64,000 bases of DNA, from the IMG/VR virus record IMGVR_UViG_2061766007_000491; one strand, given 5' to 3'. Origin of the DNA: an uncultured virus (IMG/VR IMGVR_UViG_2061766007_000491) (lineage: Duplodnaviria > Heunggongvirae > Uroviricota > Caudoviricetes). The notes under the pieces are model-generated. The model searched no databases and had not been told where the DNA came from. It was given only the letters and a program-made list of their open reading frames with translations. The position numbers were made by a program, and so were the translations under genes. This document shows, one piece after another, positions 11,394-64,000 of this stretch (positions within the stretch are counted from its first letter, which is position 1; each line of letters starts with the position of its first letter).

Positions 11394-11611
11394 CAGGTAC
11401 TATTATAACAGTGGTTGTGATCGCTGTATTGGCGGTTATTCTGAGACAGACCATTATCAATAAGAACGCTGAATTGAAAGAGGCGTTTGATAAGCTGGAC
11501 GCTGAGGTCAAAGAAAAGGTGAAAACCGTTGCGACCGAGGTAAAAGAGAAGGTCGAAGAGGCTAAAGCCAAAAAGACGACCAAGAAAAAAGATGCGGAAC
11601 CTGAAAAATAA
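11390..11611 (+). CDS. Small membrane protein (N-terminal TM, Lys-rich tail)
   Basis: Hydrophobic IITVVVIAVLAVIL followed by a charged tail. Confidence 0.7.
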   Translation: MTGTIITVVVIAVLAVILRQTIINKNAELKEAFDKLDAEVKEKVKTVATEVKEKVEEAKAKKTTKKKDAEPEK

Positions 11612-20067: not shown

Positions 20068-20212
20068 TATAGATCAGGCTGTAGTATTATAAGAGGTTTT
20101 CTGGGCAGTTATAGTGGCACAAGCTATACCTATAACGGGATGGATATGTTTAGTAACCGCAAGGAGTTTGTAGATAGGTTGTTTAGTGAGGTAGCTAAGG
20201 AAAATGACTATT
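20068..20212 (+). repeat. Diverged copy of part of gene 22661..23830, between two N gaps
   Basis: Aligns codon-for-codon with 23468..23612 (GFLGSYSGTSYTYNGMD.FSNRK.FVDRL). Confidence 0.8.
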
Positions 20213-20273
20213 GNNNNNNNNNNATTTCCGTGCTTCGGCAATGAAGCCGACACAGTATTAGAAAGGGCAATAC

Positions 20274-46184: not shown

Positions 46185-46623
46185 TTTGATAATTGAAAAC
46201 GGAGTGGTTATCGGTTATAATGGCACTGCGAAGCACTTGGTGATACCGAGCGGGGTGAAGGGTATAGGCGATGGAGCGTTTGCGGGGTGTACTACCCTAG
46301 AGAGTGTCTGTTTCCCGAACGGCTGCGAGTGGATAGGCGAGGGTGCGTTTAGGGGCTGTGACAGGCTTTCTAAGGCAGTTTTCAGTGAGACCCTTATCCG
46401 TATAGAGGATGATGCTTTCAAGGGCTGTAGCGGGCTTACAGAGCTTTATTTACCCTCTTCTGTGCGTGAGGTGGGATATAGTGCATTTGGGGACTGCAAG
46501 GGGTTACGGTGTGTAAGTCTGAGTGAGGGGTTAGAGTTGAGGGGCAAGGGTGTATTTGCACGGAGTGGTGGGAAAGAGCGCATTAAATTGAACAAGCGAG
46601 TGAGAATACTGGATTTGATATGA
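46177..46623 (+). CDS. BspA/TpLRR-type leucine-rich repeat protein
   Basis: Repeated IG..AF.GC..L..V..P units. Confidence 0.85.
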   Translation: MTDLIIENGVVIGYNGTAKHLVIPSGVKGIGDGAFAGCTTLESVCFPNGCEWIGEGAFRGCDRLSKAVFSETLIRIEDDAFKGCSGLTELYLPSSVREVGYSAFGDCKGLRCVSLSEGLELRGKGVFARSGGKERIKLNKRVRILDLI

Positions 46624-49543: not shown

Positions 49544-52500
49544 ATGAGCATTAGAACACTAGAACAGTTATTGAACGGCACACACCCTACGGATACACAC
49601 CCTGCTATGAGGGTACTACCTGCATATACCTATCCCACCGATGAGGGTCAAAGTGTGCGGGGCATGGCATTAGGCATCCTGAGCAGGGCTGGTGTGAAAG
49701 ATGCGGAGGGTGTTCTGGACACCTTAGCGTCTCTGTCAGTGTCGAATGATTTAGGGGCTAGAACGATAGCACAGGTGGAAAAGAACGAGAAAGCCCTTAT
49801 CCCTGTAGTGAACTGGTATGTGGGTGCTAGGGATTGGAGTCAGCCCTATACGGACAGTGATGAAGCTAGTGTAATTGAGGATATAGGGGATGCAATACGG
49901 AAGATATATAGTTATGAGACCACACGGAATTACAATGGTGGGTTGACGGCGATACAAGCGAGGTACAGGACTCTGGGCAAGCTGAATGCTTGGTTAGAGG
50001 CAGAGAGTAAAGATAACAGGAATATCAAGATGGACAGGGGAGGGTACAACTTCCCTGAGCTACTAGCATACAGTGATAAGGGTGTGGATGTATATAAGGC
50101 GAGCAACCCGATGGAGGCGATAGCATTATCGAAGGGGTATAGTTTCTGCATTGGACAGCCTGGGGGGAATAATATGTTTTATTCCTACCGCAACGACCCT
50201 AAAGACGCTACTGCCTACTTTGCATGGTTTAAGGATGCTGAGGGGAATAAGACTCACGACAATATGTGTGTGTTGCACGTTGGGAGTGATGGGCGGTATA
50301 GATTGACGGGATCGGGCAATCACGGTTCTCCTGTTGTGAGCAAGCGGGAGGTACTGAGTGAATACCCTGCTTTGAGAGGAGCATTGGAATCTGGTAAATT
50401 GACTGCTGATGAATACAGTGAGGACGAAAAGGCAGTACAGTTTGTTCGACCTATGGCAAGGATTGAGCTAAATGGACGGACAAAAACATTCTCCCCTACC
50501 AGCATAGCCATTCTGATAGGCAAGGGTTGTGTATTCAGCGATGAATTTTTTGATTACGTTTGGGAGGAAGTAGATAAAGGGAGGTATAGGGATGCAGGGT
50601 ATGATTCACTGATTAGGAAGTATGTACTGGCTGGGTTCACACGGCTAAGTCCCCACCAGAGAGAGGTGTTAGAAGGGTCTGGATATGGCAGGGAGGTACA
50701 AGCGTCTGAGGTTAGGTATAAGAGGCATTGGGTACAGGAGCAGATGGCATATTTTGAAAACTTAATTGCTAGTGGGAAAATGAGCATGGAGGAGAAAGAG
50801 GATGGATACCATATTGAATCGAGGAAGGTAGAGCCTATTAAGCTATACAGTCCATTGGACAAGAACATTATTATAGACGATGTGCATACCCTAGAGATAC
50901 TTGGAAATGTCTGGGATGACCATAACATTAAGAGTCTCCGTATAGGTGATGATGAAATAAAAAATACAATTAGTGAGCTAACCATTAGGGATAATGATAC
51001 TCTGACTAGAATTGAGCTTGACCCGACATTTAAGAGGTTACACGCACTTGGTTTAACTATTACGAACTGTACCAGACTTGAGACGCTAGAGGGTTTGAAC
51101 TTTAGGGCGGTTACTGGTACATTTGAGATACACTACTTACCTAAACTAAAAAATCTAAAGGGGATAGAATCACTGCCAGCATTGCCGAGGCAGTTTATGA
51201 TATGGTATTGCTCTGATTTGGAATCCCTAGATGGGTTAGATACTGCCTATGGGGACGAGGAATATCAATTACGTTTGAATGGGTTGCCCAAACTGCATAA
51301 CATGAAACACCTTCCTAAAGGGACACATCTTTTATCCTTAACTGATGTAGGACTTAACAGCGTAGAGGGCATTGAATGGTTATTGGATATGGATGACCCT
51401 GATTATGAGGGTAGGGAGATTTTAAAGAAGGTAGCATACTCTATCATGGAATTTTACAATGAGAAGTATGATGTAATGAAGGAGAGGATACCTGCTGATG
51501 CACTAGCCAAGCTATATGTGTATGTCCAGGAAAGTGGGCTTGATTTCTTTAATGAGAATATATATCACTTCACGGGTGAGGTTCCGCCAAAGGGTGCTAA
51601 GACCCTTGTTATCAATGGACATAAATATCTGAATAGGGTAGTAGGTCACATGGACACGAGTAATTATATTCCAAAGCTGGAATATATGCCCAAGAAAGCG
51701 GATACACTTAAGTACAATAACAAGCTATGTGCTGACCTAGAGGGGATAACCCCTAACATCCTTGAACTCACCATAAACTCGGATTGTGTTGGAAACCTAC
51801 ACAGTTTAAGGGGAATACGTAAAGTTGGCACACTCAATATGCGAGGTGAGATACCTGCTGAATGGATAGAGTCACTTATAGATGACAAAGAGGCTGATAT
51901 AAGAATTTTAGATATAGGTTATTATGGCGATAATCCTGAACTAGCAGATGCTTTTGTTAGTGCCTTAGAACGATATATAAGTAAACACCTCACTACCAAG
52001 ATACACGCTATACCTCGCTTTAACAGTGAATATGTAAGGAAAAAGTTTAAGGAACGATTATCCGATAACCTAACAACGGATGAATCCCTGACTCCCTGCC
52101 ACACACTGATGCGCACATTGAATGCGGTGTCAGAGGGTTGGATGGACAAAGTGAGTGGGTTCTTAGACAAGGTTGACCCTGATCGGTCTAAGATGCGTGG
52201 TTTAGCCAAGACAGCCCTTGCTCTTGCTGGCGGTGGCGAGCTTGACGATCTGGTGGGACTGATAAAAGACCGTTCCACCGATGCCGAAGTGGACGATGAC
52301 CGTGCTACCGACATATTGAGGGAAGTGAGTCTGATCTTAGGCAAGACCGATGCTGAGGTGAACCAATTTACCCGTCTCCCTGAGAAAGAGCGCACGGAGA
52401 GGGTCAAAAAGGCACTGCAAGACGTGATCTATCGCAAGTACAAGATGAACCGTTCTGAGGGTCGGGCAATGGAAAGGCTGTTATACAGGCGCATAAAGGA

Positions 52501-53020
52501 TGCCCTCTGGAATAAGTATAAATGCACTTTAGGCGAAAGCCTAAACGGTCATGCCCAGCCTGACACTCTGGGTGAATCAATCACCCACAAGGCAAAAGCA
52601 CGGAACGAGAGCCTGTCTAAGCCCTTGCAAAGCCCTGACTGGTATAACCATACCACCCACCACATAAAAGTGTCTCACAAGGCAAATACGGGCGTTTTTG
52701 AGGGGCTTCCACCCACAGTAAACTTCGAGGGTGAAGTGATGGAACTCACCACTACCGAGAGCGATAACGACTCTCGCTACGGTCATGTCAAGCCCGACTT
52801 AAAAGGTCATGCTATGCCTGACACTACCGAGGCTAACGAAGTAGATACCATAGTAGCGAACGTACATAGGCTTATAGAGAGGGACTTGAGCGAGCAAGAC
52901 CTAGAGAGTCCTGAGTTCAAGAAGGAACTGGCTAAGATGTGCATGAGGTTCGCCAACAGCGACAAACGCACTGCTAAGAAGGCGTTTATAAAAACACTTA
53001 AAAATTTTATACAAAAATAA
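49544..53020 (+). CDS. Modular paralogue family member 6 with C-terminal extension
   Basis: Core YKAS...KGYSFCIG..NMFYSYR; clear LRRs (LETLEGL, LKNLKGI, LESLDGL); internal TDESLTP..LMRTLNAVSE, then about 300 further residues. Confidence 0.85.
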   Translation: MSIRTLEQLLNGTHPTDTHPAMRVLPAYTYPTDEGQSVRGMALGILSRAGVKDAEGVLDTLASLSVSNDLGARTIAQVEKNEKALIPVVNWYVGARDWSQPYTDSDEASVIEDIGDAIRKIYSYETTRNYNGGLTAIQARYRTLGKLNAWLEAESKDNRNIKMDRGGYNFPELLAYSDKGVDVYKASNPMEAIALSKGYSFCIGQPGGNNMFYSYRNDPKDATAYFAWFKDAEGNKTHDNMCVLHVGSDGRYRLTGSGNHGSPVVSKREVLSEYPALRGALESGKLTADEYSEDEKAVQFVRPMARIELNGRTKTFSPTSIAILIGKGCVFSDEFFDYVWEEVDKGRYRDAGYDSLIRKYVLAGFTRLSPHQREVLEGSGYGREVQASEVRYKRHWVQEQMAYFENLIASGKMSMEEKEDGYHIESRKVEPIKLYSPLDKNIIIDDVHTLEILGNVWDDHNIKSLRIGDDEIKNTISELTIRDNDTLTRIELDPTFKRLHALGLTITNCTRLETLEGLNFRAVTGTFEIHYLPKLKNLKGIESLPALPRQFMIWYCSDLESLDGLDTAYGDEEYQLRLNGLPKLHNMKHLPKGTHLLSLTDVGLNSVEGIEWLLDMDDPDYEGREILKKVAYSIMEFYNEKYDVMKERIPADALAKLYVYVQESGLDFFNENIYHFTGEVPPKGAKTLVINGHKYLNRVVGHMDTSNYIPKLEYMPKKADTLKYNNKLCADLEGITPNILELTINSDCVGNLHSLRGIRKVGTLNMRGEIPAEWIESLIDDKEADIRILDIGYYGDNPELADAFVSALERYISKHLTTKIHAIPRFNSEYVRKKFKERLSDNLTTDESLTPCHTLMRTLNAVSEGWMDKVSGFLDKVDPDRSKMRGLAKTALALAGGGELDDLVGLIKDRSTDAEVDDDRATDILREVSLILGKTDAEVNQFTRLPEKERTERVKKALQDVIYRKYKMNRSEGRAMERLLYRRIKDALWNKYKCTLGESLNGHAQPDTLGESITHKAKARNESLSKPLQSPDWYNHTTHHIKVSHKANTGVFEGLPPTVNFEGEVMELTTTESDNDSRYGHVKPDLKGHAMPDTTEANEVDTIVANVHRLIERDLSEQDLESPEFKKELAKMCMRFANSDKRTAKKAFIKTLKNFIQK

Positions 53021-53049
53021 CTTGCTTCTCTCGCTGGAATGTGTAAAAT
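53001..53049 (+). promoter_or_regulatory. Sigma70-type promoter with the same A-tract as 20009
   Basis: AAAATTTTATACAAAAAT..TTGCTT-16 nt-TAAAAT. Confidence 0.5.
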
Positions 53050-53086
53050 GTGTGCAGTTACTCACGATGGTGTGGGTAACGCACTC

Positions 53087-53587
53087 ATGTTAAGTATGAC
53101 ACAAGTTGAAAAGATAAAGTATGTTGCCAAGGTAGCGATACTGGTATGGAACACTCATGCGAACAAGTTTGACGAGTTACGGATTACGCAAGAAGATTTC
53201 GTTCAGAATGTCTTTGTACGGTGTTCTGAGGTAGGCTGGGACAACCTAAATAGTGGCAAGGGTTTATCCACCTATGTCACGAAGCTGGCTCGTTCGTTAG
53301 CGATCAAGCTGTTAAGCAAGCGGTCTTTAGTAGATTATGTGGAACATGATTCAGAGGTATTGGAACTGAACATAACGCCCATAGACGAGACCGAGTTTCT
53401 GAGTCACCTATGGGAGTGTTTACCCACCAAGCCTGTATGCAGGGGTCACACCTACAGGGATATAATTGAGAGGTTTTTAGAGAGCAGTGATTGGGAATAT
53501 AGTGTAGGCACTAAGAACTGGACTACTATTGGCAAGGTACAGAGAGCGATAAAGGGATTTATACGTTATGCGGGACAAAATCTATGA
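53087..53587 (+). CDS. Putative RNA polymerase sigma-factor-like protein (region 2)
   Basis: EDFVQNVFVR...W......LSTYVTKLARSLAIKLL resembles sigma70/ECF region 2; start placed after the promoter. Confidence 0.55.
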   Translation: MLSMTQVEKIKYVAKVAILVWNTHANKFDELRITQEDFVQNVFVRCSEVGWDNLNSGKGLSTYVTKLARSLAIKLLSKRSLVDYVEHDSEVLELNITPIDETEFLSHLWECLPTKPVCRGHTYRDIIERFLESSDWEYSVGTKNWTTIGKVQRAIKGFIRYAGQNL

Positions 53588-53801
53588 TGCTAAGGGGCTA
53601 GAGTTACGCCCTGGGGATAGAGTGACTTCTAAGGTAGGTCTGTTTACACAAGGCTTTGTGAGTGACGACTGGCTCACGAACGTACCTGACGGCGAGATAC
53701 GGGTTTATGTAAACCTGTTGCCTATCGTGACTAAGAAAAACACGGTTCGGCAAAGAAAGAAGTTTTATACCGTGAATCCCCGTTTAATATGGAAGGTCTA
53801 A
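53568..53801 (+). CDS. Hypothetical protein (SH3/KOW-like)
   Basis: D.KG.ELRPGDRV N-terminal pattern. Confidence 0.6.
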   Translation: MRDKIYDAKGLELRPGDRVTSKVGLFTQGFVSDDWLTNVPDGEIRVYVNLLPIVTKKNTVRQRKKFYTVNPRLIWKV

Positions 53802-54244
53802 ACGTGGATGGTCACACTATGCCTGACATAAGGGGTCATGCCCAGCCTGACACACACCCTACTACGGTGAGGACATTATACCTGGGCATACCGAGGGGGA
53901 TAGACGCTAACACCTTTACGGTACTGAGCGATAAGGCTACACTGGTTGCGTACTGTGATCGGTGGTCTGGGAGTGACGTTGCCTTACGGATGGATTGCAG
54001 GGGGATAGCTGACCCTTCGCTATACCAATACATACTGCGATTTATAGAGGGGTATGAAGGTTCCATAGAGCTAATAGCGAGGGAACCTGTACCTGAGACC
54101 ATACTGTCACGGTTCACAGTGATTAAAAAGGCGTTTACCCCACCTGAGAAGGGTTCTATCTGGTTAAAGGTGCTGGGTGAGATACCGCCTTATATGCGGG
54201 ACAAGATAGGTTCCTTATACGGATTTGAATATGCTGATAATTAG
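53789..54244 (+). CDS. Possible degenerate clamp-loader (delta-prime-like) subunit
   Basis: ILRFIE...ETILSRF resembles the LLK.LEE...TILSRC signature; no P-loop. Confidence 0.4.
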   Translation: MEGLNVDGHTMPDIRGHAQPDTHPTTVRTLYLGIPRGIDANTFTVLSDKATLVAYCDRWSGSDVALRMDCRGIADPSLYQYILRFIEGYEGSIELIAREPVPETILSRFTVIKKAFTPPEKGSIWLKVLGEIPPYMRDKIGSLYGFEYADN

Positions 54245-54842
54245 CTTAGAAGGTTTAGATGGGTGTGGAAAATCCACACAATGCAAAATGTTACACGACA
54301 CACTCACGGAGCGAGGTTTTCATGTTGGCATGGTACGAGAGCCTGGTGGGAGTGATCTGGGCAATGAATTACGCTCTATTCTGTTAAGGGAAGGTCGTAT
54401 TGCTCTATGGGCAGAGGCTTACCTGTTTATGGCAGCGAGGGCGCAGATGCTCTCTGAGTTAGGCGAGTACGACATACTATTATGTGATAGGTACATTGAT
54501 TCCAGTGTAGTTTATCAGGGCTATGCGAGGGGTTTAGGCATAGAACGTATCTGGAAGCTGAGTGACCCTTCCATTGCTGACCGCTACCCTGACACTACGC
54601 TGTATATAAGAGTGCCTTATGAGACGTGCTTAGAGAGACTAACCAGCAGGGGCAAGGCAGACCGTATTGAGTCCAGCGGTATTGAGTTTTTCAAGCGGGT
54701 CTATGAGGGATATGAGACTCTAAGCGACCAAGACACAAACAGGTGGATTACGATAGATGGTCTAGGCACACCTGAGCAGGTACATGACCGTATCATACTA
54801 TCTCTAAGGCAACGCTATACCCACTTATATATGCGTATATAA
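54231..54842 (+). CDS. tmk: Thymidylate kinase
   Basis: LEGLDGCGKST, REPGG, LFMAARAQ, DRY.DSS.VYQG, DRIE. Confidence 0.95.
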   Translation: MLIISLEGLDGCGKSTQCKMLHDTLTERGFHVGMVREPGGSDLGNELRSILLREGRIALWAEAYLFMAARAQMLSELGEYDILLCDRYIDSSVVYQGYARGLGIERIWKLSDPSIADRYPDTTLYIRVPYETCLERLTSRGKADRIESSGIEFFKRVYEGYETLSDQDTNRWITIDGLGTPEQVHDRIILSLRQRYTHLYMRI

Positions 54843-54881
54843 CGCTATATAACGTACATATTTGACTTATAAGACGTTTTT

Positions 54882-55205
54882 ATGACAAAAACATACTATT
54901 ATAACCCACCGAGGCTAAGAACGACTTTAGCGATCACTGCTGGCATATTCACTATATTCATAGGTATGCTGATAGTGGGTTGCTGTGAGAGGCAAGAGAC
55001 TCCACAACTAAGTCCCACTGAGTATATGCAAGAGCAATCAGACTTCAACTACAGAGAGGCTACCAGTGGGGGAGGCTATGCACCCAGAACCTACCATGCT
55101 TCACTGGCGACCATGTACGAGGTGCGGTTATTGAGGCAAGAGGTACAGACATTGAACTCCAACATAACCTACCTGATAGACCACCTGTCTGAGAGAGACC
55201 GCTAA
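54882..55205 (+). CDS. Membrane/lipoprotein-like hypothetical protein
   Basis: Hydrophobic segment ending LIVG-C. Confidence 0.6.
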   Translation: MTKTYYYNPPRLRTTLAITAGIFTIFIGMLIVGCCERQETPQLSPTEYMQEQSDFNYREATSGGGYAPRTYHASLATMYEVRLLRQEVQTLNSNITYLIDHLSERDR

Positions 55206-55236
55206 CCCACTGTGAATAACTTGTGAATAACCCAAT

Positions 55237-55908
55237 ATGAGTGTAAAAAACAGAATCCAGTGTGAAGAGTCTAACTATGGGCTTATATCGTACCTATGGC
55301 CTTTATATCGGTGGGTATATTATCCCTACACGCCTTTTGTACCTGAGAGCCATTTAATAGTGGTGTGTGACATGGAGAGGGATTTATACCCCACTAAAAC
55401 GTGCATATATCTAACCAAGCACAATGGGGTCAAGGTGGACACGAAACAAGGGTTTATCACGATACTCTCTGAGAGGTGGGCATTAGACGACAAGCTCAAG
55501 GGTATGTTGCTTGCCTTAGATGACACTGAGTTCTGGGAGGCTGGCAAGTATTTCTGGCTTATGGGGACACTGCCTTATGCTCTGGGTACGGACACCACTG
55601 CGAGTGTATTTAAGGTGTTCAGGGCGTTATTCAGCGATTATGGTACGGCTTATGCCATGTACCGTGCGATGCAAAGGTCTTACAAGGCTGTATTCAGCGG
55701 GTTACTGTCCATGATGCTCAAGAGCCAAGCGGAACTGGTTACAGCGGATGCCTCACCTGTATATAAGAGGGCATTACAAGAGAACCGTATCTATATGGGT
55801 TGGTTCCGCAGGTGTGTTACGGATTACTTATCTAGTGATCGCACAGAGAGGGATTTTCTTACCTTTTTATACCAATGTTCACAGGCACGGAGGGGTGTAT
55901 TAGCATGA
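55237..55908 (+). CDS. Hypothetical protein
   Basis: Intact ORF. Confidence 0.65.
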   Translation: MSVKNRIQCEESNYGLISYLWPLYRWVYYPYTPFVPESHLIVVCDMERDLYPTKTCIYLTKHNGVKVDTKQGFITILSERWALDDKLKGMLLALDDTEFWEAGKYFWLMGTLPYALGTDTTASVFKVFRALFSDYGTAYAMYRAMQRSYKAVFSGLLSMMLKSQAELVTADASPVYKRALQENRIYMGWFRRCVTDYLSSDRTERDFLTFLYQCSQARRGVLA

Positions 55909-57056
55909 CCCACCTGACTGAGAGCATACTAAGGGAGCGGTTTAGCAAGGGAGCTATACCGATTAAAAATAATTTCACAAAACCACTTGACACAAAATCG
56001 AGTGTGTTATACAATGATTTCGCCTTGAGGGTTAAGCGTTGTGTTGCTTGCGGGTTAGCCGAGAGAAGGTCATGGCTGCCTGTAACACCGCACGGAGACT
56101 TAACCGCCAGGGTATGCGTGATAGGCAGATGTCCGTCATTCCGAGAGGGGTGCGAGGGACACTCCTTCCCCAAAGGGTCATACAGATACAATCTGATGCA
56201 AGAATACAAGCGTATATTTGGTATTGAACAGGAACCTTTATGGTACTCCTACGCAACCTATTGTGATTGCGGTACGGAGAGACCATCCTATTCAGAGATC
56301 GCTTGTTGCCGTGCATACAAGGCTATGGAATTATCCATGCTGGAAAGGGTTGATGTTATATTCTTGTGGGGACTATCCGCAGTACGGTCTCTACTGGATG
56401 TGCCTTATACACATATTAGTGATGTATTAGGGTACACCTACGAAACTGTGCTGGCTAACCGAACAGCGTGGCTTATCCCAACGCTTCATCCCATAAGCCT
56501 GGGGTGGCGTACCAGAGTGCTGGGGCGTTGGGTGAATGAGTGTTTGAGTGTCTTAGTAAGAGATACCCTTGCTAAGAAGCTCACCTCTGCCGTTCGGGTT
56601 ATGTGCAATACGGTGCAAACAGGTGTGTGCGATACAGCGGAGGGCGTTTCCCGAAGCGAGAGTACCGCTCTTCCCACACAATATGGTCATTCTACAACAG
56701 AGACCACTCTTTCTACAGAGGGTCACTCTGCTATGGAATCCCACCCTTTTGATGCCCACCAAGGTGCTACAGAGAGGTGTGAGAGTGGGAACCATGTTCG
56801 TATCACTGATAACCACACCACTACAGAACCCACCTTTGTTACACAAAAACAGGGTGGTTCCACAGTGGTTTCTTACCATGATACAGAATCCACACCTAAG
56901 TGCTTGGAAACAAGCACACTACACCGTACTTGGAACCAAGTAACGGTTAATAAAAAGACTATAGTGTATAATAATCATTGTAATATGTATTCGATAATGA
57001 ATTGTAATAATTCATTAGCGAACTTATCAATGCACAATGTGCATTTGATAACCTGA
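55905..57056 (+). CDS. Family-4 uracil-DNA glycosylase-like protein with low-complexity extension
   Basis: CVAC.L.......P..G....V.VIG..P...E...G..F, EIACC, IPTLHP; last ~150 aa are Thr/His/Ser-rich. Confidence 0.65.
   Translation: MTHLTESILRERFSKGAIPIKNNFTKPLDTKSSVLYNDFALRVKRCVACGLAERRSWLPVTPHGDLTARVCVIGRCPSFREGCEGHSFPKGSYRYNLMQEYKRIFGIEQEPLWYSYATYCDCGTERPSYSEIACCRAYKAMELSMLERVDVIFLWGLSAVRSLLDVPYTHISDVLGYTYETVLANRTAWLIPTLHPISLGWRTRVLGRWVNECLSVLVRDTLAKKLTSAVRVMCNTVQTGVCDTAEGVSRSESTALPTQYGHSTTETTLSTEGHSAMESHPFDAHQGATERCESGNHVRITDNHTTTEPTFVTQKQGGSTVVSYHDTESTPKCLETSTLHRTWNQVTVNKKTIVYNNHCNMYSIMNCNNSLANLSMHNVHLIT
55965..56015 (+). promoter_or_regulatory. Near-consensus sigma70 promoter inside the UDG-like ORF
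   Basis: TTGACA (55987)-17 nt-TACAAT (56010) with upstream A-tract. Confidence 0.5.
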
Positions 57057-57787
57057 TAAGTGGAGTGTTACACCCCCAGTGTAACCTACACTCCACTACA
57101 GTAGTAGTAATACATACATAGTATGAATAGGGGTTGTTAGGGGAATTAAGGTGAGGGAGTGCTGAGGTGAGCGTTGAGTGAGGCTGAGAGAGGCGGAGCG
57201 AGAGGTGGGCTGAGGCACGAACGGAACGGAGAGGAACCTGACGATTGAAACGAAACTGTGGTGGATGAAAGTGGGCAAAGCTCGAAAGGCTGGGTTGTCT
57301 TGAGATAAGAAGAGACGAGTAGAGCGAGGGGTGTGCTGGACAGGAATAGAACCCTGGACTCCATTTGCTGTGAAAAGTCAGTAAAAAGGACGGAACACTG
57401 CGGTCAGATACACGATCGCCCGTCTGAGGCTCTGAGAAGGCGTTAGAGACGTTTTGATGGGTTAGGTGATATGGTGATACCACCCAGACCATAAAAACCG
57501 CTCACAGGTCAATTCTGTGCGTTTTTGAAGGCAACGGTGAACAAGTGCGAGTGTTGCATTGCCCGACAGGTATGAAGCTGATACCGCCGTGAGGGTACAG
57601 CAGGCGCAAACCTGTGGGATGGCTGTAGGGATGGAAAGGCCCGATATTGAAGCGAAGGATGAATGGTATAACGGAGAAAGAGGGCTGCCGTACTGAGAAG
57701 GGTCGGCAAGTGAACTTTGAGTGAATGGATGGATGCTCTGGGATGGGCATGGAAACGAGAATGTAAGTGGAATGGATGGAATGGAAT
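56940..57787. other. Candidate replication origin or genome-end region
   Basis: AT-rich tract, three stacked inverted repeats (56995..57097), abrupt switch to purine/G-rich non-coding DNA. Confidence 0.45.
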
Positions 57788-58015
57788 ATGAGTGAGAATA
57801 CAGAGCCTCGTGAGAAGAGGCGGTACAGCAGACCGTACAAGGATTGCTCTGGTGTCCCGTACAGGACATTTGGGGTGAGGGTACACGGCTATGAATGGGA
57901 GTATCTGAAAAAGGCAGCGAAGGGTGCGAACAAGACTGTTAGCTCTTTTGTAAGGAGCAGGTTATCGGACGTGCTTGAGGATGCCAGGAAGGAGCGGTTA
58001 TGTTCGGCTGGGTAA
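57788..58015 (+). CDS. Ribbon-helix-helix DNA-binding protein
   Basis: FGVRV...EWEYLKKAA......VSSFVRSRL. Confidence 0.7.
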   Translation: MSENTEPREKRRYSRPYKDCSGVPYRTFGVRVHGYEWEYLKKAAKGANKTVSSFVRSRLSDVLEDARKERLCSAG

Positions 58016-58671
58016 GGAGTCTGGTAGGGTGCAAGTGTGCTGAGAAGGACATAGAGATCAGCCAGTTACAGGGTGGAATGGAAACCTGGATGAACAAGTG
58101 CTATGATGCGGAAGGACGCATCAGGGAGCTTGAACAGGAAGCAGCGACTGAGAAGGACATCAGGCAGACATTAGAGAAGGGTCTGAACGAGAAGGAAGTG
58201 GAACTGAGGCGCAAGAGTGACTTGGTAGAATCGTTAGAGAAGCAAGTGCGTGATCTGACGGCAGATAACGGTCAATGGGCGAGCAAGTTTGACTTCTTGC
58301 ACACGGAGAAGGTGAAGTGTTGTGATCGTGTGAAGGAATTGGAGCGGGAGAACGCTGAATTGAAGCAGACGATAAGCAACATGAACGAAGAGCGGACGAT
58401 GCTGTGCAATCAGATACAAAAGCTGATGGATGACAAGCGTGGGTTAGAGGAGCAGATAGCGGAGTTATATCGGAAAGTGGAGGCGTTAGAGAAGGAGCGA
58501 GAGGACTTGCGCAAGACGTTAGAGCAGCGGACAGAGGAAATGGACGTGATGGAGGACAGGGCGAGTGCTGCTAGGATAGCGTCTGGCAAGGTAGATATAG
58601 CTGACATTGAGACGGATGTGAAGAAGCGCAGAAAGTCTGTCAAGGCAGAGGCGAAAAAAAGGTCAAAATAA
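58000..58671 (+). CDS. Long coiled-coil protein
   Basis: Continuous heptad, E/K/Q-rich. Confidence 0.75.
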   Translation: MFGWVRSLVGCKCAEKDIEISQLQGGMETWMNKCYDAEGRIRELEQEAATEKDIRQTLEKGLNEKEVELRRKSDLVESLEKQVRDLTADNGQWASKFDFLHTEKVKCCDRVKELERENAELKQTISNMNEERTMLCNQIQKLMDDKRGLEEQIAELYRKVEALEKEREDLRKTLEQRTEEMDVMEDRASAARIASGKVDIADIETDVKKRRKSVKAEAKKRSK

Positions 58672-58710
58672 TTGTAGAAAAAACGCCTCGAAAAGTATAT
58701 ATATGAGATA
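58665..58710 (+). promoter_or_regulatory. Repeated promoter-like motif, copy 2
   Basis: AAAATAATTGTAGAAAAAACG-N11-ATATATATGAGATA, directly upstream of the candidate ncRNA. Confidence 0.6.
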
Positions 58711-58711
58711 G

Positions 58712-59331
58712 AAGCCCGTGAGAGCGGGCAATGATTTACAGGCGAGGCGACCTGTAGGGCTTAGACGGTGTTATGGTGTCTGAGAACGCACAACGAGTAT
58801 AAGGACGCTGACCGATTGAAGTGACGTGCTGTAACGTGAAAGCGACTGCTAAGCTGAGTTATCAACCTCGCTTGTTTACGCAGACGAAGTGCTGTATAAG
58901 GTACACGCTAAGGCTGGCTGAAACGGCATGATAGAGTAAGCTGGTTTATCCTGAAAGGGATAGGGTATATTGGAGAAGCATAGAGTCTGTGAGCATGGTA
59001 TGAGTCCATTGGATAGGTACTCTCCTGTATGTTGTCTCTGGAATAGACAGCATAAGTCTCTAACGAAGGGACAGTATTAGTGCAGGGCTTGTATCGTGTG
59101 AAGGGCGAGCATAGGTCACTAATCGTGAATCGCCAACAGCGGGAGACCGTTGCCTCGGAAACGAGGAGGATATTGTGGAAGCCTGTGCTTTGCTTGAGCC
59201 GTGCAGTATGCGGACAATAACTTGGCTGCATGGCGAGTGTCTGGTCTGGTAAACCGAAAGTCACTCTGGACTGGATGCGAAGGGCCACCTACTGTGGGGA
59301 GTGGAGTGTTTGAACTTGATTCCCCACTTTT
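58712..59331 (+). ncRNA. Candidate large structured non-coding RNA (~620 nt)
   Basis: No credible ORF; more than ten stems, four closed by GAGA/GAAA tetraloops; ends in a terminator. Confidence 0.65.
59294..59331 (+). terminator. Rho-independent terminator closing the candidate ncRNA
   Basis: GTGGGGAGT...ATTCCCCAC-TTTT. Confidence 0.7.
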
Positions 59332-59344
59332 ACTAATAGAGTGT

Positions 59345-59485
59345 ATGAAGGTACGAATTGAAATAGACACGGATACCGATAAGGTCGAGGTCAAGAAAGA
59401 CGAAGCGAAGGTTGAGAGTCAAAAGACGATGAACCTGAACGAAGTTGTTAGAGACGAGGCGAAGGGTCAAGCGATCAATGAGTAG
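59345..59485 (+). CDS. Small hypothetical protein (46 aa)
   Basis: MKVRIEIDT...; starts after the terminator and overlaps the next start. Confidence 0.55.
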   Translation: MKVRIEIDTDTDKVEVKKDEAKVESQKTMNLNEVVRDEAKGQAINE

Positions 59486-59921
59486 TTTGAATGCGGTGAC
59501 AGGTCTGACGGTACGGTGGAAGCGGTTGCATGAGGATGCGAAGCCACCTTTGCGGGTAGCTGCGAGTGTGCCTGTATATGACTTGTTCTGTTACAAGTAC
59601 GAAGAGATCGTTGAGGGGATGCTGGTGTACGATGGTTATTACAGATACCATACTGGCATTGTGTTTGAAGTTCCTGATTATTGGGCTGGGTTCTTATTCC
59701 CTCGGAGCAGTATTTATACGGTGGGGATGGACTTAGCGAACAGTGTAGGGATAATCAGGAGTGATTCACGAGGTGAGGTCGTATTTAACTATCGGGCATT
59801 GAGCCATAGACACTATGTAGCTGGACACAGGATAGGTCAAGTGGTGTTCATGCCATTGGGTGATGCGATACTGGAAGAGGTTGAGGAATTGACTCAATAC
59901 TGGAAGAAGTTGAAAAGTTGA
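59478..59921 (+). CDS. dut: Trimeric dUTPase-like protein, degenerate
   Basis: YDL, HTGI, PRSS, LANSVGII...RGEV, RIGQ; motif III altered and motif V absent. Confidence 0.75.
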   Translation: MSSLNAVTGLTVRWKRLHEDAKPPLRVAASVPVYDLFCYKYEEIVEGMLVYDGYYRYHTGIVFEVPDYWAGFLFPRSSIYTVGMDLANSVGIIRSDSRGEVVFNYRALSHRHYVAGHRIGQVVFMPLGDAILEEVEELTQYWKKLKS

Positions 59922-59923
59922 CG

Positions 59924-60280
59924 ATGAATGCTTTGAAAGAGGATGTGCTGAGGGTACTGGACAATTATCACGGGTACTGTGAAGATGAACGGTTCAGCGA
60001 ATACATTGAGGGTGACGGCAAGCCTAGAGAGTATTTTGAGGATAAAGCGCAGTATGCACGGATGATATTGCAAGACGTGTTAAAGATGGGCGATAGTCAG
60101 GAACAGTATGACACACTGATACCGATGATGGATGTGTGGGATAGTCTGATGACACGGCACACTTGGGACACGGAAGCGCAAGAAGAGTTGTTCGGTGATA
60201 TGTTTGTGAACGAGCTATTAAGGCGACTAGGCTGGACGCAGGTGTCAGAGGATTGCTGGCGTGGGACAAACTTTTTTTAG
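59924..60280 (+). CDS. Hypothetical protein (paralogue pair A1)
   Basis: IPMMD...EELF.DMF..ELLRRLGW shared with the next gene. Confidence 0.65.
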   Translation: MNALKEDVLRVLDNYHGYCEDERFSEYIEGDGKPREYFEDKAQYARMILQDVLKMGDSQEQYDTLIPMMDVWDSLMTRHTWDTEAQEELFGDMFVNELLRRLGWTQVSEDCWRGTNFF

Positions 60281-60291
60281 AGGTGAGTGAT

Positions 60292-60681
60292 ATGTTTGTG
60301 AATGATACGGATATAAATGTGAACGAACATTACGAGGTGGGTGCAGACGATAAGGTACTGTATGAAGTGAACAAAGCCCTGATGCAATATCATTACACGG
60401 AAGAGGGTCACGATATAGAGAAGGATGATTTCGACTCGAAAGAGAAGGGCGAGATCATTGACAGATTGAGTGACTTTCTGGGTGTAGAACTGCGGATGTG
60501 GGACATGATACCCCTGATGGACTTATACAGTAGGATTAAGCGAGACGTGAGCTTTAGCTGTAAGAGCGAAGAGGTCTTGTTTAATAATATGTATGCCCAT
60601 GAGGTTTTGAGAAAAATAGGCTTTATAGAAGAGAGTGATTCCTGGGTTAAGGATAAAACGACTCTGATAGAAAAAGAATAG
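60292..60681 (+). CDS. Hypothetical protein (paralogue pair A2)
   Basis: IPLMD...EEVLF.NMY..EVLRKIGF. Confidence 0.65.
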   Translation: MFVNDTDINVNEHYEVGADDKVLYEVNKALMQYHYTEEGHDIEKDDFDSKEKGEIIDRLSDFLGVELRMWDMIPLMDLYSRIKRDVSFSCKSEEVLFNNMYAHEVLRKIGFIEESDSWVKDKTTLIEKE

Positions 60682-60682
60682 T

Positions 60683-60964
60683 ATGCTGGATTGCGGGTTG
60701 GATTTGCCATTAGGAACTAAGTTCCGCTTAGTGAGTGCAGTGGACAGTGAGCATCCAGTGACATGGGTGCAGGTGACTGAGGTGAATAAAGCGGATAAAG
60801 AACCGAGGGATAGCAAAACGCTTTGTGAAAAGAATTGTTTTTTCTGGAAGCATTGCAGTTGGCGGTTCCAGAGCAGGTACACTTCTATTGTAAGTGAGGT
60901 GACACCGATATGCAGCAGACATTTCAGAGCCGATGGGAAGGACGTGTTTTTTAAGGTATGTTAA
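60683..60964 (+). CDS. Small Cys-rich protein (triplet B1)
   Basis: LDLPLGT...C..C...C....R.DGKDVFFK. Confidence 0.7.
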   Translation: MLDCGLDLPLGTKFRLVSAVDSEHPVTWVQVTEVNKADKEPRDSKTLCEKNCFFWKHCSWRFQSRYTSIVSEVTPICSRHFRADGKDVFFKVC

Positions 60965-61188
60965 AACTGGATTTACCTATAGGCACAGAGTTTAATGTGA
61001 CTACTGATGAAGGGACTAAGACCTTTAGGGTGGTTAAGTTAGATACAATGATACATGATTGTGCTATGTGTCCTTTTGGTGGTTCTGACCTCTGCGATAG
61101 ATCGGATGATAAAGTGGTGTGTTGTGATAATGACAGAGCGGATGGCAAGGATGTGTACTTTGAAGAGGTGAAGGATGTTAGAGATTGA
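60958..61188 (+). CDS. Small Cys-rich protein (triplet B2)
   Basis: LDLPIGT...CAMC...C...RADGKDVYFEEV. Confidence 0.7.
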   Translation: MLKLDLPIGTEFNVTTDEGTKTFRVVKLDTMIHDCAMCPFGGSDLCDRSDDKVVCCDNDRADGKDVYFEEVKDVRD

Positions 61189-61417
61189 GATACCCTTGGG
61201 GACACGGATATGTGTGCGGAAGGGCGATCACTATGCCGACTATGAGTTAGTGGAGGGTGACGCTTGTAATAAGTGTGGACTGTATGCGTATTGCGATAAC
61301 GGCAGAATGAGCGAGGAGAATGATATATCTTTTCTGTGTGGCCGTTATGTACGCAGTGACAGTAAGGATGTGTATTTTAAGAAAGTGATTAAGAGGAAGA
61401 GGAAGAGCAATGAATAA
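61175..61417 (+). CDS. Small Cys-rich protein (triplet B3)
   Basis: IEIPLGT...CNKC...C...RSDSKDVYFKKV. Confidence 0.7.
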   Translation: MLEIEIPLGTRICVRKGDHYADYELVEGDACNKCGLYAYCDNGRMSEENDISFLCGRYVRSDSKDVYFKKVIKRKRKSNE

Positions 61418-61826
61418 CGAGCCAGAGAGTTTCAGGAATGCGGTTCATGCGTTGAATAAGCCACAGCGAGAACAATTAGATGCTCGACTTGCTTGTGTTG
61501 TAAATCGCTGGGACACCTTGAAAAACAATGGTGGCGGGATTGCTTGGGACGAGCTAAGTGGCTTTTTTGATTGGGCGAGAGAGGAATTAGCAGAAGCCTA
61601 TTGGGATATGTTTGAACAGCGGTTTCTCAATGGCGAGAAGGGTCATAGAACGCCAGGTGGGTGTGACAAAGCAGAGCAAGCGGATGTGGATGATGTAGAG
61701 CCTGATGTGCCTTATGTAGATAACCATTTGAATGAGCCGAAGCGGATTCCTTTTTATAGAACGTGTTTGATGGCGATTAGCTCGATAGTGGATAAGGCGT
61801 TAGAGGAAGGAGACAAGCATGAGTAG
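61410..61826 (+). CDS. Hypothetical protein (triplet C1)
   Basis: FFDWAREELAEAYWDMFE motif shared with the next two genes. Confidence 0.65.
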   Translation: MNNEPESFRNAVHALNKPQREQLDARLACVVNRWDTLKNNGGGIAWDELSGFFDWAREELAEAYWDMFEQRFLNGEKGHRTPGGCDKAEQADVDDVEPDVPYVDNHLNEPKRIPFYRTCLMAISSIVDKALEEGDKHE

Positions 61827-62178
61827 CACTCCTGACTTTGTAAGGTGGGCAAGAGACCTGAGCTTGACACAGGGAGAGAAGCTGGATGATGCGCTAAACA
61901 ATGTTTTGGTGCATTACATGAAGGTGATGGGTACAAGTGAACTGCAACATTTTTATAACTATGCCAGACAGGAACTAGCTTGTGCGTTCTGGCAGGTGTA
62001 TGAAGAGATAAAAAAGGATGACCCCTTTGATTTGAAGCGTTATAAGGGGGACATACCTGAGTATATGGGCGGTGGGATGCCTAAGAAGCCCGAAGTGATC
62101 GTGACGGGTTTGGATAATAATACAACACCGTATGAGAACCCTGTGAGTGGTGGAACGACAAAGACATATCCAAGATGA
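61819..62178 (+). CDS. Hypothetical protein (triplet C2)
   Basis: FYNYARQELACAFWQVYE. Confidence 0.65.
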   Translation: MSSTPDFVRWARDLSLTQGEKLDDALNNVLVHYMKVMGTSELQHFYNYARQELACAFWQVYEEIKKDDPFDLKRYKGDIPEYMGGGMPKKPEVIVTGLDNNTTPYENPVSGGTTKTYPR

Positions 62179-62783
62179 CAACGGTAGATTTATATATTAA
62201 AGAGGCTAAGAAACTAAACAGACATAACAATTCTTGGGTGAACTATGCCTTGAGACTTGTGTTACAGGAATACGAAAAGCTGGATAAAAGCGATGATGAG
62301 TCTGTGGAACGGTTTTATACTTGGGCTATGGAGACGTTATGTCCAGCATTCTGGGGTGTTTATGAAATGCACTTCCTGTATGGTGATCGTGACCCTGAGC
62401 AGTGGTTAAAAGAGAATACGGGTTTTCTGTATCGCTTAGAGAGACTGCTGATAGACGGCAAGGGCGAGGCTTTGAAGCAGATGCGTGATAAGTTGCCGAT
62501 GTTGTTTAATATGCCTTCTGCTGAGGATGTGCCAGCCGAGGAAGTGATGTGTACTTGTGATGGTGACTGTAGCAGGTGCGATGGTCAGCAAGTGGAGTGT
62601 AAAGATTGCAAGTATTGTGGGGATATTCCAGACGATGAAAAGGTAGCGTGTACCTGTGAGGATGGGGACTGTATGGATTGCAATGGGCAGAATGTGGCGT
62701 GTAAGGATTGCAAGTATGGTGGGTGTAAGAAGGATATAGATGGTGATATGCCTGTGATGGGTGTAGATGTGAGGGTTCCATGA
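62175..62783 (+). CDS. Hypothetical protein (triplet C3) with duplicated Cys-rich tail
   Basis: FYTWAMETLCPAFWGVYE; CTC.(D)GDC..C.GQ.V.CKDCKY present twice. Confidence 0.65.
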   Translation: MTTVDLYIKEAKKLNRHNNSWVNYALRLVLQEYEKLDKSDDESVERFYTWAMETLCPAFWGVYEMHFLYGDRDPEQWLKENTGFLYRLERLLIDGKGEALKQMRDKLPMLFNMPSAEDVPAEEVMCTCDGDCSRCDGQQVECKDCKYCGDIPDDEKVACTCEDGDCMDCNGQNVACKDCKYGGCKKDIDGDMPVMGVDVRVP

Positions 62784-63133
62784 GTGATGTAGATTTTAGC
62801 GATATTAAGAAGGAATACGAGGATGCTTGTATCAGGTGTTTAGCGAAGAGTTCTGGCATACCAGAGAAGAAGCTGAGAGCCTATTATGAAGAGCAGCGTG
62901 AGTATTACAGGCGAAAACGAGAAGAAGCGAAAAAGCCTGTGGATGAAGCTATGTCCTTTGCGCTGGGTTCAATCCATGATGTGCTGGAAGGGCGTGAGAA
63001 GCAGAGACAAGAGCGAGAACGTGAACATGAGAAGCGTATAGAAGAGGTCAATAATAAGACTCGTGACTTCTTAAAGAAGCTGATAGATGCGGAGAAGGAG
63101 CGGATTATTGGAAAGGGAGACGTGTTGATATGA
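62780..63133 (+). CDS. Hypothetical charged helical protein
   Basis: Intact ORF with ATGA overlap. Confidence 0.6.
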   Translation: MSDVDFSDIKKEYEDACIRCLAKSSGIPEKKLRAYYEEQREYYRRKREEAKKPVDEAMSFALGSIHDVLEGREKQRQEREREHEKRIEEVNNKTRDFLKKLIDAEKERIIGKGDVLI

Positions 63134-63357
63134 GTGCGATAAATAAGCGTCAGTGGGTATCTTTAGACGATAATGACCTGCTTGTTGTCCTGAATAAATC
63201 CAGGGTAGTGAAGGGCGTGTATATGCTGAACAGCCAAGGTGCGTTAGTAAGTGCGACTTATAGCGATGTTGCGGGCGGTTGGATAGATGCGAATGAATTT
63301 GAATTGAAAAAGGGTGACGATGGTTGGGTTAAGATAAAAGGAAAGATATTATGTTAG
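63130..63357 (+). CDS. Hypothetical protein
   Basis: Intact ORF with ATGA overlap. Confidence 0.55.
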   Translation: MSAINKRQWVSLDDNDLLVVLNKSRVVKGVYMLNSQGALVSATYSDVAGGWIDANEFELKKGDDGWVKIKGKILC

Positions 63358-63563
63358 CTTATATATCTGATGAATGGTTCGTGTGCTGGTATGTGTTTGG
63401 GTTCTTTCTGGGTGCGTTTGGTGCGCTAGTGAACGGTGTAGCGATACACGAACAAAAGAAAGCATACAGCATACGGTTTGATACGGTGCTGTATTTTTGT
63501 TTATGTGTGGGTGCGATGGTGTTTAGCGGTGTGAAGCTGTTTTTGTTATGGCTGGCAAGATAA
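63351..63563 (+). CDS. Small two-TM membrane protein
   Basis: Two hydrophobic segments. Confidence 0.6.
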   Translation: MLAYISDEWFVCWYVFGFFLGAFGALVNGVAIHEQKKAYSIRFDTVLYFCLCVGAMVFSGVKLFLLWLAR

Positions 63564-63943
63564 AGGAATATAGAAGGGATTATAATACTTGGATTAAGTT
63601 TAATGGAAACGACCCCGTTGAATCAAGAGCCATGTTTTACTTTGAACTGGCTGAGTTATACGATCGCTACTGGAAAAAGGAATTGCTGATGTACGGACGA
63701 TGCGAGTGTTTGGTCTATGAGGAAGCTGGTTATGTAGAGATACGCTGTATAGAACGCAAGCATAGATTCTGGTTTGGTGAGAAGTGTAGTGCAATACGCA
63801 GGTTTAAGTTGCTGGATGACAAGCTCCATGTACTGATCTATATGGTGAAAGAAAGCATAGTAGATGATTGTATCATAGACAGAAGCACATCCTATAATCC
63901 GCATGATGGAACCGATGCAACAGTTGGAACTGTTCAAGGGTGA
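63548..63943 (+). CDS. Hypothetical protein
   Basis: Intact ORF. Confidence 0.55.
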   Translation: MAGKIKEYRRDYNTWIKFNGNDPVESRAMFYFELAELYDRYWKKELLMYGRCECLVYEEAGYVEIRCIERKHRFWFGEKCSAIRRFKLLDDKLHVLIYMVKESIVDDCIIDRSTSYNPHDGTDATVGTVQG

Positions 63944-64000
63944 AGAGATCATCCTGGTGGACGGCGATAAGTGGGACTTATTCTTGTGGGATAACGAGGG

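Follow-up and report, generated by a model that had tools for sequence, protein, structure and literature searches.

Results

A gene-free stretch in a gene-dense phage sequence

The 64,000-nucleotide (nt) stretch analyzed here (the window; viral record IMGVR_UViG_2061766007_000491) is a gene-dense sequence of an uncultured cattle-rumen phage. All of its credible genes are on the + strand, with a marked excess of G over C throughout. Between the stop codon of a gene for a coiled-coil protein (58669–58671) and the ATG of a gene for a protein of 46 amino acids (aa) (59345) lies a gap of 673 nt (58672–59344). This gap holds the subject of this work, a predicted noncoding RNA (ncRNA) whose primary transcript of ∼620 nt would span 58710–59331 on the + strand, with a core at 58746–59298 that is found in RNA libraries, no credible open reading frame (ORF), and no Rfam family. 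Among the gaps between + strand ORFs of at least 100 aa, it is second in size to 57057–57766.

The three + frames of 58672–59345 contain 16, 14, and 13 stops per 224 codons, and all three kinds of stop occur in each. Since all three are abundant in every + frame, reassignment of a stop codon would open no frame, and an alternative genetic code was rejected. The + ORFs of at least 30 aa in the gap measure 36, 36, and 46 aa and start with GTG or TTG. Seven ORFs from both strands of the region were compared with Pfam and PHROG at E values up to 1, which gave nothing except two noise matches on a 94-aa ORF, and none of the seven is present in a collection of 15 billion proteins. A protein gene on the antisense strand was rejected as well, because its 126-aa ORF matches no family and has no relative among 5.8 billion proteins. 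The base composition of the RNA strand is 30% G and 18% C. The stops in all + frames, together with the frame-shifting indels of relatives described below, bear out the claim of an initial annotation, made from the sequence alone, that the stretch has no credible ORF.

A promoter-like element and a terminator-like hairpin delimit the predicted RNA

A promoter-like element is found at 58667–58704 on the + strand. It consists of the 19-mer AATAATTGTAGAAAAAACG, which holds the −35-like TTGTAG, and a −10-like TATATAT ∼12 to 14 nt further on. The 19-mer has exactly two copies in the 64 kb, at 11607 and 58667 (none of 100 shuffles gives two). Both copies stand directly after a stop codon and continue with (G)ATATATAT(T/G)AGATA, and the copy at 11607 precedes an ordinary protein gene. 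A scan for the sigma-70 consensus flagged no promoter at 58667, because the −35 matches at only 3 of 6 positions. Judging from the position of this element, the RNA would start near 58708–58712. The word TTGTAGA was also considered as a general phage promoter word and was rejected because genes contain most of its 11 copies on the + strand. Among viral contigs, the 19-mer was found at six IMG/VR loci (L005–L010), once in each, all within one mutually related phage family. These contigs have no blastn or tblastx similarity to the window apart from the 19-mer, and its occurrence there is probably a coincidence.

At the other end of the gap, a hairpin at 59294–59331 (+ strand) resembles an intrinsic terminator, with 9 + 4 pairs followed by UUUUAC. 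Its stem (59294–59327) has a folding energy of −22.2 kcal/mol and a z score of −4.98, with none of 200 shuffles as good, and a pair probability of 1.0 in the structural ensemble. The consensus terminator scan did not flag 59294–59331, because the loop exceeds 8 nt. As the consensus scans missed both ends, the promoter and the terminator are inferred from repetition and stability, respectively, and not from a match to consensus. On these grounds, the earlier claims that the RNA has its own promoter-like motif and its own terminator both stand, the former on a 19-mer with two copies in the window, both of them preceded by a stop codon and followed by a −10-like box, and the latter on a hairpin of marked stability followed by a U tract.

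It should be noted that a 182-aa protein of the window (53039–53587) resembles sigma-70 region 2 weakly and below threshold, with E 0.008 and 16.4 bits where the cut-off is 24. Were this protein a phage sigma factor, it could recognize the unusual TTGTAG-type promoter common to 11607 and 58667.

The predicted fold is rich in GNRA-capped hairpins

Pair probabilities (P) were calculated from the Boltzmann ensemble of 58705–59335, which comprises nested structures and in which pseudoknots are not scorable. On the + strand, the predicted 5′ hairpin GCCCGU-GAGA-GCGGGC (58714–58729) has six pairs and a GNRA loop (P 0.99). The hairpin UUUAUCCU-GAAA-GGGAUAGG (58945–58964), also with a GNRA loop, has eight pairs and a mean P of 0.72; a natural deletion of 1 to 2 nt in the G run at 58963 costs it at most the outer G·U pair. 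A 10-pair hairpin, UAUGUUGUCU / AGACAGCAUA, follows at 59028–59054 (P 0.96), and the natural variant 59029 A>G keeps its pair as G·U. Further downstream, the hairpins CAGCGG-GAGA-CCGUUG (59137–59152) and CCUCG-GAAA-CGAGG (59153–59166) stand side by side (both P 1.0), followed by the 10-pair hairpin GCCGUGCAGU / GCUGCAUGGC at 59198–59234 (P 0.99). The hairpins at 59137 and 59198 each carry a two-sided compensatory change in the relative P0020, described below. Lastly, the minimum free energy (MFE) structure contains a 13-pair helix with five G·U pairs and a 16-nt loop at 59237–59278 (P 0.99 at the tested pairs).

All of the stems named in the initial annotation are present as complementarities, and those at 58714, 58945, 59028, 59137, 59153, and 59198 are favored in the ensemble (P 0.72–1.0). 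The stems 58735/58751, 58760/58778, and 59076/59123 with its inner stem fared otherwise, at P 0.00–0.02, because long-range alternatives win. The pseudoknot proposed between 59171–76 and 59214–19 has a P of 0.00 in an ensemble that is unable to score pseudoknots. The natural variant 59173 U>C would give a C·A mismatch in it, and in P0020 five of its six pairs would survive, two as wobbles. The pseudoknot is neither supported nor excluded.

The excess of GNRA-capped hairpins is the most specific signal beyond chance. The 674-nt region contains four such hairpins with stems of at least five pairs; the + strand of all 64 kb contains 29, or 0.31 per 674 nt. The region is the sole tile of 188 with at least three, and none of 2000 dinucleotide shuffles reaches four. 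The − strand of the region has none.

For 58710–59298, the z score of the folding energy is −2.55 on the + strand, where 2 of 120 shuffles reach as low an energy, and −0.35 on the − strand, where 43 of 120 do; for 58672–59345, the values from 20 shuffles are −3.13 and −0.80. The MFE is −202 kcal/mol for 590 nt, which is 2.4 standard deviations (sd) below the tile mean of −158 (sd 18). An MFE as low is reached by 2 of 106 tiles of 590 nt (59001–59590, which overlaps the RNA, is at −206.6). The comparison of folding energy with shuffles, which had been suggested as a check of the initial annotation, had a divided outcome: the region beats its shuffles moderately, but some coding stretches equal it and the region is not singled out. 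The assignment of the RNA to the + strand is in agreement with the asymmetry of the z scores, with GNRA hairpins found solely on that strand, and with the substitutions from G·U to Watson-Crick pairs reported below.

RNA libraries contain the core of the predicted RNA

The public sequencing runs that contain the RNA stretch are bovine and sheep gut metagenomes. Three RNA runs from three studies (X4, X17, and X18) and one DNA run (X3) were mapped as contigs on 52001–64000. Over the RNA gene, contigs cover 58746–59298 in X18, 58786–59142 in X17, and 58801–58989 plus 58999–59298 in X4, a library of 34 million letters only. The X4 and X18 contigs both end at 59298, five bases into the terminator stem, without a loose end, and the contig of the DNA run extends to 60075; the shared end at 59298 is rated a weak hint. 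Of the 30 bins in 52001–64000, 2 have any depth in X4, 7 in X17, and 6 in X18, compared to all 30 in the DNA run. The genes that flank the RNA (58000–58671, and 59345 onward) have no RNA contig, although uncovered parts prove nothing. Three further RNA runs, X6, X19, and X20, contain 0.52, 0.24, and 0.23 of the sampled words and were not counted as evidence.

Relatives conserve the 3′ part of the RNA, but not as protein

Direct searches for relatives at the nucleotide level were negative. A blastn search of the region against 50,697 phage records gave no match. Viral contigs gave nothing for a 20-mer and a 23-mer of the RNA, for the dUTPase, the coiled-coil protein, or the DNA polymerase of the window, or for an alignment of its 1158-aa protein with five orthologues, and genome contigs gave nothing for a 22-mer of the RNA or for the same protein alignment. 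A structure-aware pattern run on metagenome contigs led to two loci, L001 and L002, which were rejected as chance matches with no blastn similarity and no complementary stems. Within the window, blastn with a word size of 7 found only the shared promoter stretch and no copy of the RNA.

Homologues were reached by way of spurious proteins, as gene callers on related contigs had translated the 3′ part of the RNA. The query was the 94-aa ORF 59201–59485, the last 46 residues of which are the real small gene. This search returned P0012 (on a contig of 56,062 nt), P0013, P0014, and P0015, as well as three proteins with the small gene alone. P0015 joins two frames of the window and spans the homologue of 59080–59335; starting from P0015, a search without a profile then reached P0020, a more distant relative, whose cluster mate P0021 extends into the small gene.

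The small gene adjacent to the RNA (59345–59485, + strand) has its ATG 14 nt past the U tract and overlaps the start of a dUTPase gene (59445–59921; Pfam PF00692, E 1.9e-10). Its product begins with MKVRIEIDT, is acidic and lysine-rich, and matches no family. It is found without any frame shift in eight relatives (P0012, P0013, P0014, P0016–P0018, P0019, and P0021), three of which (P0016–P0018) have an in-frame insertion of 8 to 10 residues. By contrast, frame-shifting indels occur at six distinct places within the RNA (two in P0012, four in P0013, one in P0015, and six in P0020, some of them shared). This indicates that the RNA part is conserved, but not as protein. In every relative that covers both (P0012, P0013, P0014, P0019, and P0021), the 3′ part of the RNA adjoins the small gene.

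Substitutions at 25 sites, 18 of them strain variants from the sequencing runs and 7 inferred from P0012, P0013, and P0015, were compared with the predicted pairs. Only 4 of the 25 break a pair, compared to 8.7 expected (P 0.013). At paired sites, 12 of 16 substitutions keep the pair, including six non-trivial ones (four G>A at G·U and two U>C at U·G; P 0.002). These six transitions turn G·U into Watson-Crick pairs, which makes sense only for an RNA of the + strand.

The more distant relative, P0020, provides changes on both sides of a helix. Two pairs, 59140/59149 and 59204/59228, are changed from C-G to U-A (null mean 0.24; P for at least two 0.019, 20,000 permutations). In the hairpin 59137–59152, the loop remains GNRA (GNAA). 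The hairpin 59153–59166 has 59164 A>G in its 3′ arm and a loss or replacement of U59155 in its 5′ arm, which leaves a C-G stem of three to four pairs; its loop-closing pair is gone and its loop reads GARA, so that both tetraloops remain of the GNRA type. The letters are deduced from a translation, which makes their exact identity ambiguous. In the hairpin 59198–59234, one-sided changes at 59205, 59229, and 59231 keep their pairs, as does the variant 59205 A>G of the RNA run X18. The helix 59237–59278 is longer by 1 nt on each arm (59249–50 on the 5′ arm and 59266–70 on the 3′ arm) in both P0013 and P0020; 59270 A>G in P0012 keeps its pair, and 59273 G>A or C in P0015 also lies inside this helix. 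The terminator arms, as inferred from amino acids, are unchanged in P0012, P0013, and P0020, and the loop has an indel in each. As to the homologues and covariation called for at the outset, the relatives provided two compensatory pairs in the 3′ third of the RNA, and the direct blastn search of phage records remained empty.

The RNA matches no family in Rfam

A search of the whole window against Rfam 15, both at gathering scores and at E values up to 1, gave no match; at gathering scores, GOLLD, OLE, HEARO, raiA, and every other Rfam 15 family had zero covariance-model matches. At E values up to 10, searches of 58400–59600 and of 58700–59340 (641 nt, lax filters) gave only noise, namely snoTBR5, which falls in the upstream gene (E 0.98), and Mico1 (E 8.4). 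As a positive control, the known ROOL RNA of plasmid pMP118 (NC_007930) scored 130.4 bits with the model RF03087, for which the cut-off is 99.1 bits, both in a genome search and with the same cmscan tool. A group I or group II intron was rejected, as no intron model matches, the upstream gene has its own stop, and the 46-aa gene has its own conserved ATG. ARAGORN found no tRNA or tmRNA gene in the 64-kb window. In a literature search, no report of another large RNA class from rumen phages came up in the full texts searched, which are a limited collection. With the cmscan search negative and its control positive, the suggestion of the initial annotation that the RNA lies outside known families is supported: it matches no Rfam 15 family and is classed here with the large ornate ncRNAs of phages.

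The known RNAs most similar in kind are ROOL and GOLLD. The two are the phage-borne classes known so far and, as recent work shows, assemble into RNA-only cages of unexplained purpose (PMC12286853). ROOL RNAs, with a mean length of 581 nt and 10 nucleotides conserved at ≥97% (PMC5737381), are encoded in phages and prophages, are as abundant as 16S rRNA in one strain of Ligilactobacillus salivarius (PMC12286853; PMC5737381), and often lie near tRNA islands (PMC12286853); the env-120 ROOL is 659 nt long (PMC5737381; PMC12286853). GOLLD expression is described as rising during phage lysis, and its members are often >800 nt with a universally conserved 3′ region (PMC12286853).

The RNA of the window shares with ROOL (RF03087) a phage carrier, a rumen origin, the lack of coding, a size of ∼600 nt, many hairpins, and presence in RNA libraries. 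By length, carrier, and habitat (580–660 nt, phage or prophage, rumen and Firmicutes), it falls with ROOL at its ∼550 to 620 nt. It differs in that the covariance model does not match it at E values up to 10 and in that the 64-kb window has no tRNA, although a tRNA neighborhood is frequent and not obligatory in ROOL. ROOL has six multistem junctions, three pseudoknots, and an octameric assembly, whereas the window RNA is described by a single-sequence fold and a partial comparison. With GOLLD, likewise carried by phages and prophages, the window RNA shares its large size, a structured build, and GNRA loops; it is shorter than many GOLLD members and lacks both the Rfam match and the tRNA context.

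Discussion

Taken together, the lack of coding, the promoter-like and terminator-like ends, the GNRA hairpins, and the substitutions in relatives support that 58710–59331 is a conserved, transcribed, and noncoding structured RNA element, and we place the probability of this reading at roughly 0.85. The initial annotation had described a ∼620-nt noncoding, structured phage RNA of the + strand with its own promoter and terminator, and each part of that description survived testing.

Several points weigh against this conclusion. The predicted fold derives from the window's own single sequence, and its well-definedness is just within the top 8 to 12% of tiles. The three 300-nt windows of the region have z scores of −3.85, −1.16, and −2.87 (n = 211; genome mean −0.67, sd 1.40), coding windows reach −4.7, and the 900-nt running mean of z ranks 7th of 207. 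The nucleotide changes of relatives were inferred from the amino-acid sequences of mis-called ORFs by frameshift-aware alignment, an approach that misses synonymous changes and leaves some letters ambiguous. If two ambiguous changes are read in the least favorable way, the P value of the pair-preservation test becomes 0.076 over all sites and 0.017 over paired sites. The comparative evidence covers ∼59080–59333, the 3′ third, and the 5′ 400 nt draws on 11 near-strain substitutions. Near-strain variation taken by itself (18 sites) gives a P value of 0.20. Four substitutions break predicted pairs, two of these at pairs of low probability, and in P0020 loop-closing pairs, among them 59207/59225, are broken by one two-sided and one one-sided change. 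With regard to expression, contigs cannot tell strand, ends, or level, and the same RNA runs carry contigs of the protein-coding unit 56043–57537, which means that presence in an RNA library alone is no proof of a stable ncRNA.

If the element is an RNA as described, transcription would begin near 58710 and end at the 59294–59331 terminator, possibly with 3′ trimming to ∼59298. The transcript is predicted to fold into a chain of GNRA-capped hairpin domains and may build up as a stable molecule in infected cells. ROOL and GOLLD suggest, by analogy, that it would act in trans through its folded shape, without pairing to a target and without coding for a product, perhaps as a self-assembling scaffold or as a decoy that captures RNA-binding or translation factors of the host, roles also suspected of those two classes. 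A shape-based role in infection, as a scaffold, cage, or decoy, is the most likely function that this analogy suggests.

The alternative with the most to recommend it is that the same RNA element works in cis, as a long 5′ leader of the downstream operon (the 46-aa gene, the dUTPase gene, and small paralogous genes). Polymerases leaving 58710 would mostly stop at 59294–59331, which would yield a plentiful terminated leader, and read-through, perhaps aided by a phage antiterminator or by the fold of the leader, would express the genes. In outline, phages have arrangements of this kind. The lambda 6S RNA (pR′-tR′, with Q) and the HK022 put RNA are terminated leader or cis-acting antitermination RNAs of ∼70 to 200 nt, attenuator and antiterminator leaders measure ∼70 to 300 nt, and the RNA of the window shares with the lambda and HK022 examples a promoter, an untranslated RNA, and an intrinsic terminator directly upstream of co-oriented phage genes. 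The terminator lies 14 nt before the conserved ATG of the small gene with no promoter-like site in between, the synteny of the two is constant in the five relatives that cover both, and the second copy of the promoter 19-mer drives an ordinary protein gene; the first of these also counts against a free-standing RNA. However, these leaders are much smaller than an RNA of ∼620 nt that has at least seven stable hairpin domains and four GNRA loops. No antiterminator pairing to the 5′ arm of the terminator turned up in passing, although no search was aimed at one. The compensatory changes lie 150 to 190 nt upstream of the terminator, on hairpins far from it, so that selection acts on more than the terminator. 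Its size, its many domains, the excess of GNRA hairpins, and this selection lead us to lean, if only slightly, toward a free-standing, trans-acting RNA, and to regard the leader as possible but doubtful.

The remaining explanations are considerably less probable. That the stretch is a transcribed but functionless spacer or a decayed gene, with hairpins that arise by chance from a G+U-rich strand, would fit with the coding stretches of the same genome that match or beat its z scores, with a G-rich strand that favors G·U pairing, and with the near-strain variation, weak when taken alone. We consider this improbable, as the GNRA excess is found in no dinucleotide shuffle and nowhere else in the genome, as relatives show two-sided compensatory changes, matched arm insertions, and variable loops with kept stems, and as the 670 nt are retained by a gene-dense phage in at least five further versions. 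Another candidate is a transcript that primes replication or forms an R-loop at an origin, in the manner of ColE1 RNA II, which is a replication primer transcript. The role would suit a structured, G-rich transcript of ∼600 nt that is not translated and has its own promoter, and it would agree with neighboring genes for a thymidylate kinase, a uracil-DNA glycosylase family protein, and the dUTPase. It is nevertheless the explanation we credit least, given that the RNA ends in a terminator and not in an AT-rich unwinding region, that the other large gap is more origin-like (AT-rich at 56940–57056, then purine-rich at 57100–57300), and that GNRA-capped domains with compensatory changes are unexpected of a mere primer. 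A very divergent member of the ROOL family, homologous but beyond recognition by the Rfam model, is nearly as hard to credit. Habitat, carrier, and size class are all as in ROOL, and ROOL has few highly conserved nucleotides, the 10 at ≥97% given in PMC5737381. Against homology are the absence of a match at E values up to 10 in the lax-filter search, in view of a control well above its cut-off, the absence of tRNA from the window, and a fold that is predicted to be a chain of local domains.

The RNA is probably a new class in the size range of ROOL and GOLLD. A bolder extension by analogy, to which we give little credence, is that it is the founding member of a third large phage RNA class beside these two, unrelated to them in sequence, which would accumulate to high levels in infected rumen bacteria and assemble into an RNA-only cage or scaffold through GNRA loops and their receptors. 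If this were true, such RNA architectures would be a recurrent invention of phages and not two isolated curiosities. Apart from the ribosome, RNase P, and introns, large ncRNAs with an intricate fold are seldom found, and a further unrelated phage RNA of this size, kept by phage relatives and present in RNA libraries from the rumen, would mean that phages have evolved such RNAs repeatedly. It would also offer a new subject for structure determination and a second angle on the role of such RNAs in infection. In addition, gene callers turn RNAs of this kind into spurious "hypothetical proteins," through which homologues can be found even where the DNA is out of reach.

Other features of the window

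The proteins of the window include a family-A DNA polymerase, two helicases, a ligase, and the thymidylate kinase, uracil-DNA glycosylase family protein, and dUTPase mentioned above. The best match of the DNA polymerase among the 50,697 phage records has 27.6% identity, and the 1158-aa protein has just five orthologues (54–70% identity) among 5.8 billion proteins. By these measures, the phage is very divergent and far from cultured phages. The 1158-aa protein is one of two large, adjacent paralogues (46620–49526, 968 aa, and 49544–53020, 1158 aa) that are 36% identical over part of their length and have no Pfam or PHROG family match; one orthologue, P0005, has PF13306 in a precomputed list. 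At the start of the window, a giant ORF of >2300 aa (1–6942), open at its 5′ side and with no Pfam match, may encode a virion-associated giant protein.

Downstream of the dUTPase gene lie two arrays of small genes (59918–61417). One comprises small paralogous genes at 59918–60280 and 60253–60681 with a common C-terminal motif, and the other comprises three Cys-rich paralogues at 60683–60964, 60958–61188, and 61175–61417. The lowest folding z score of the window (−4.73) is at 60301–60600, within these arrays. A run of N is present near 20226, and a stretch of ∼50 nt that begins with TTGTAGATAGGTTG occurs in two copies (20168–20197 and 23568–23597), near the ends of two genes.

The largest ORF-free gap, 57057–57766 (710 nt), also has stops in all + frames. 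It contains a long perfect hairpin (57060–57100) and the purine-rich stretch 57100–57300, and the AT-rich zone just before it (56940–57056) is palindromic. Its fold has a z score of −2.18 and a centroid far from the MFE structure, which indicates an ill-defined fold. This gap could be an origin region, a 3′ untranslated tail of the glycosylase transcript, or both.

The glycosylase unit (55987–57537) has a near-consensus sigma-70 promoter, TTGACA-17-TACAAT (55987–56015, 11 of 12 positions), which lies inside the ORF 55875–57056 and directly upstream of the uracil-DNA glycosylase domain, and a terminator-like site at 57503–57519. The real glycosylase gene probably starts near 56026–56040, downstream of this promoter. 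RNA contigs in the unit cover 56043–56467, 56549–56915, and 57354–57537. In the RNA run X17, a contig of 430 nt at depth 372 leads from 56467 back to 56068, as in a 400-nt circle or a tandem duplication. The 400 nt cover most of the glycosylase domain, and the junction is not seen in the DNA run X3; it could reflect a circular RNA, a duplicated strain, or a library artefact.

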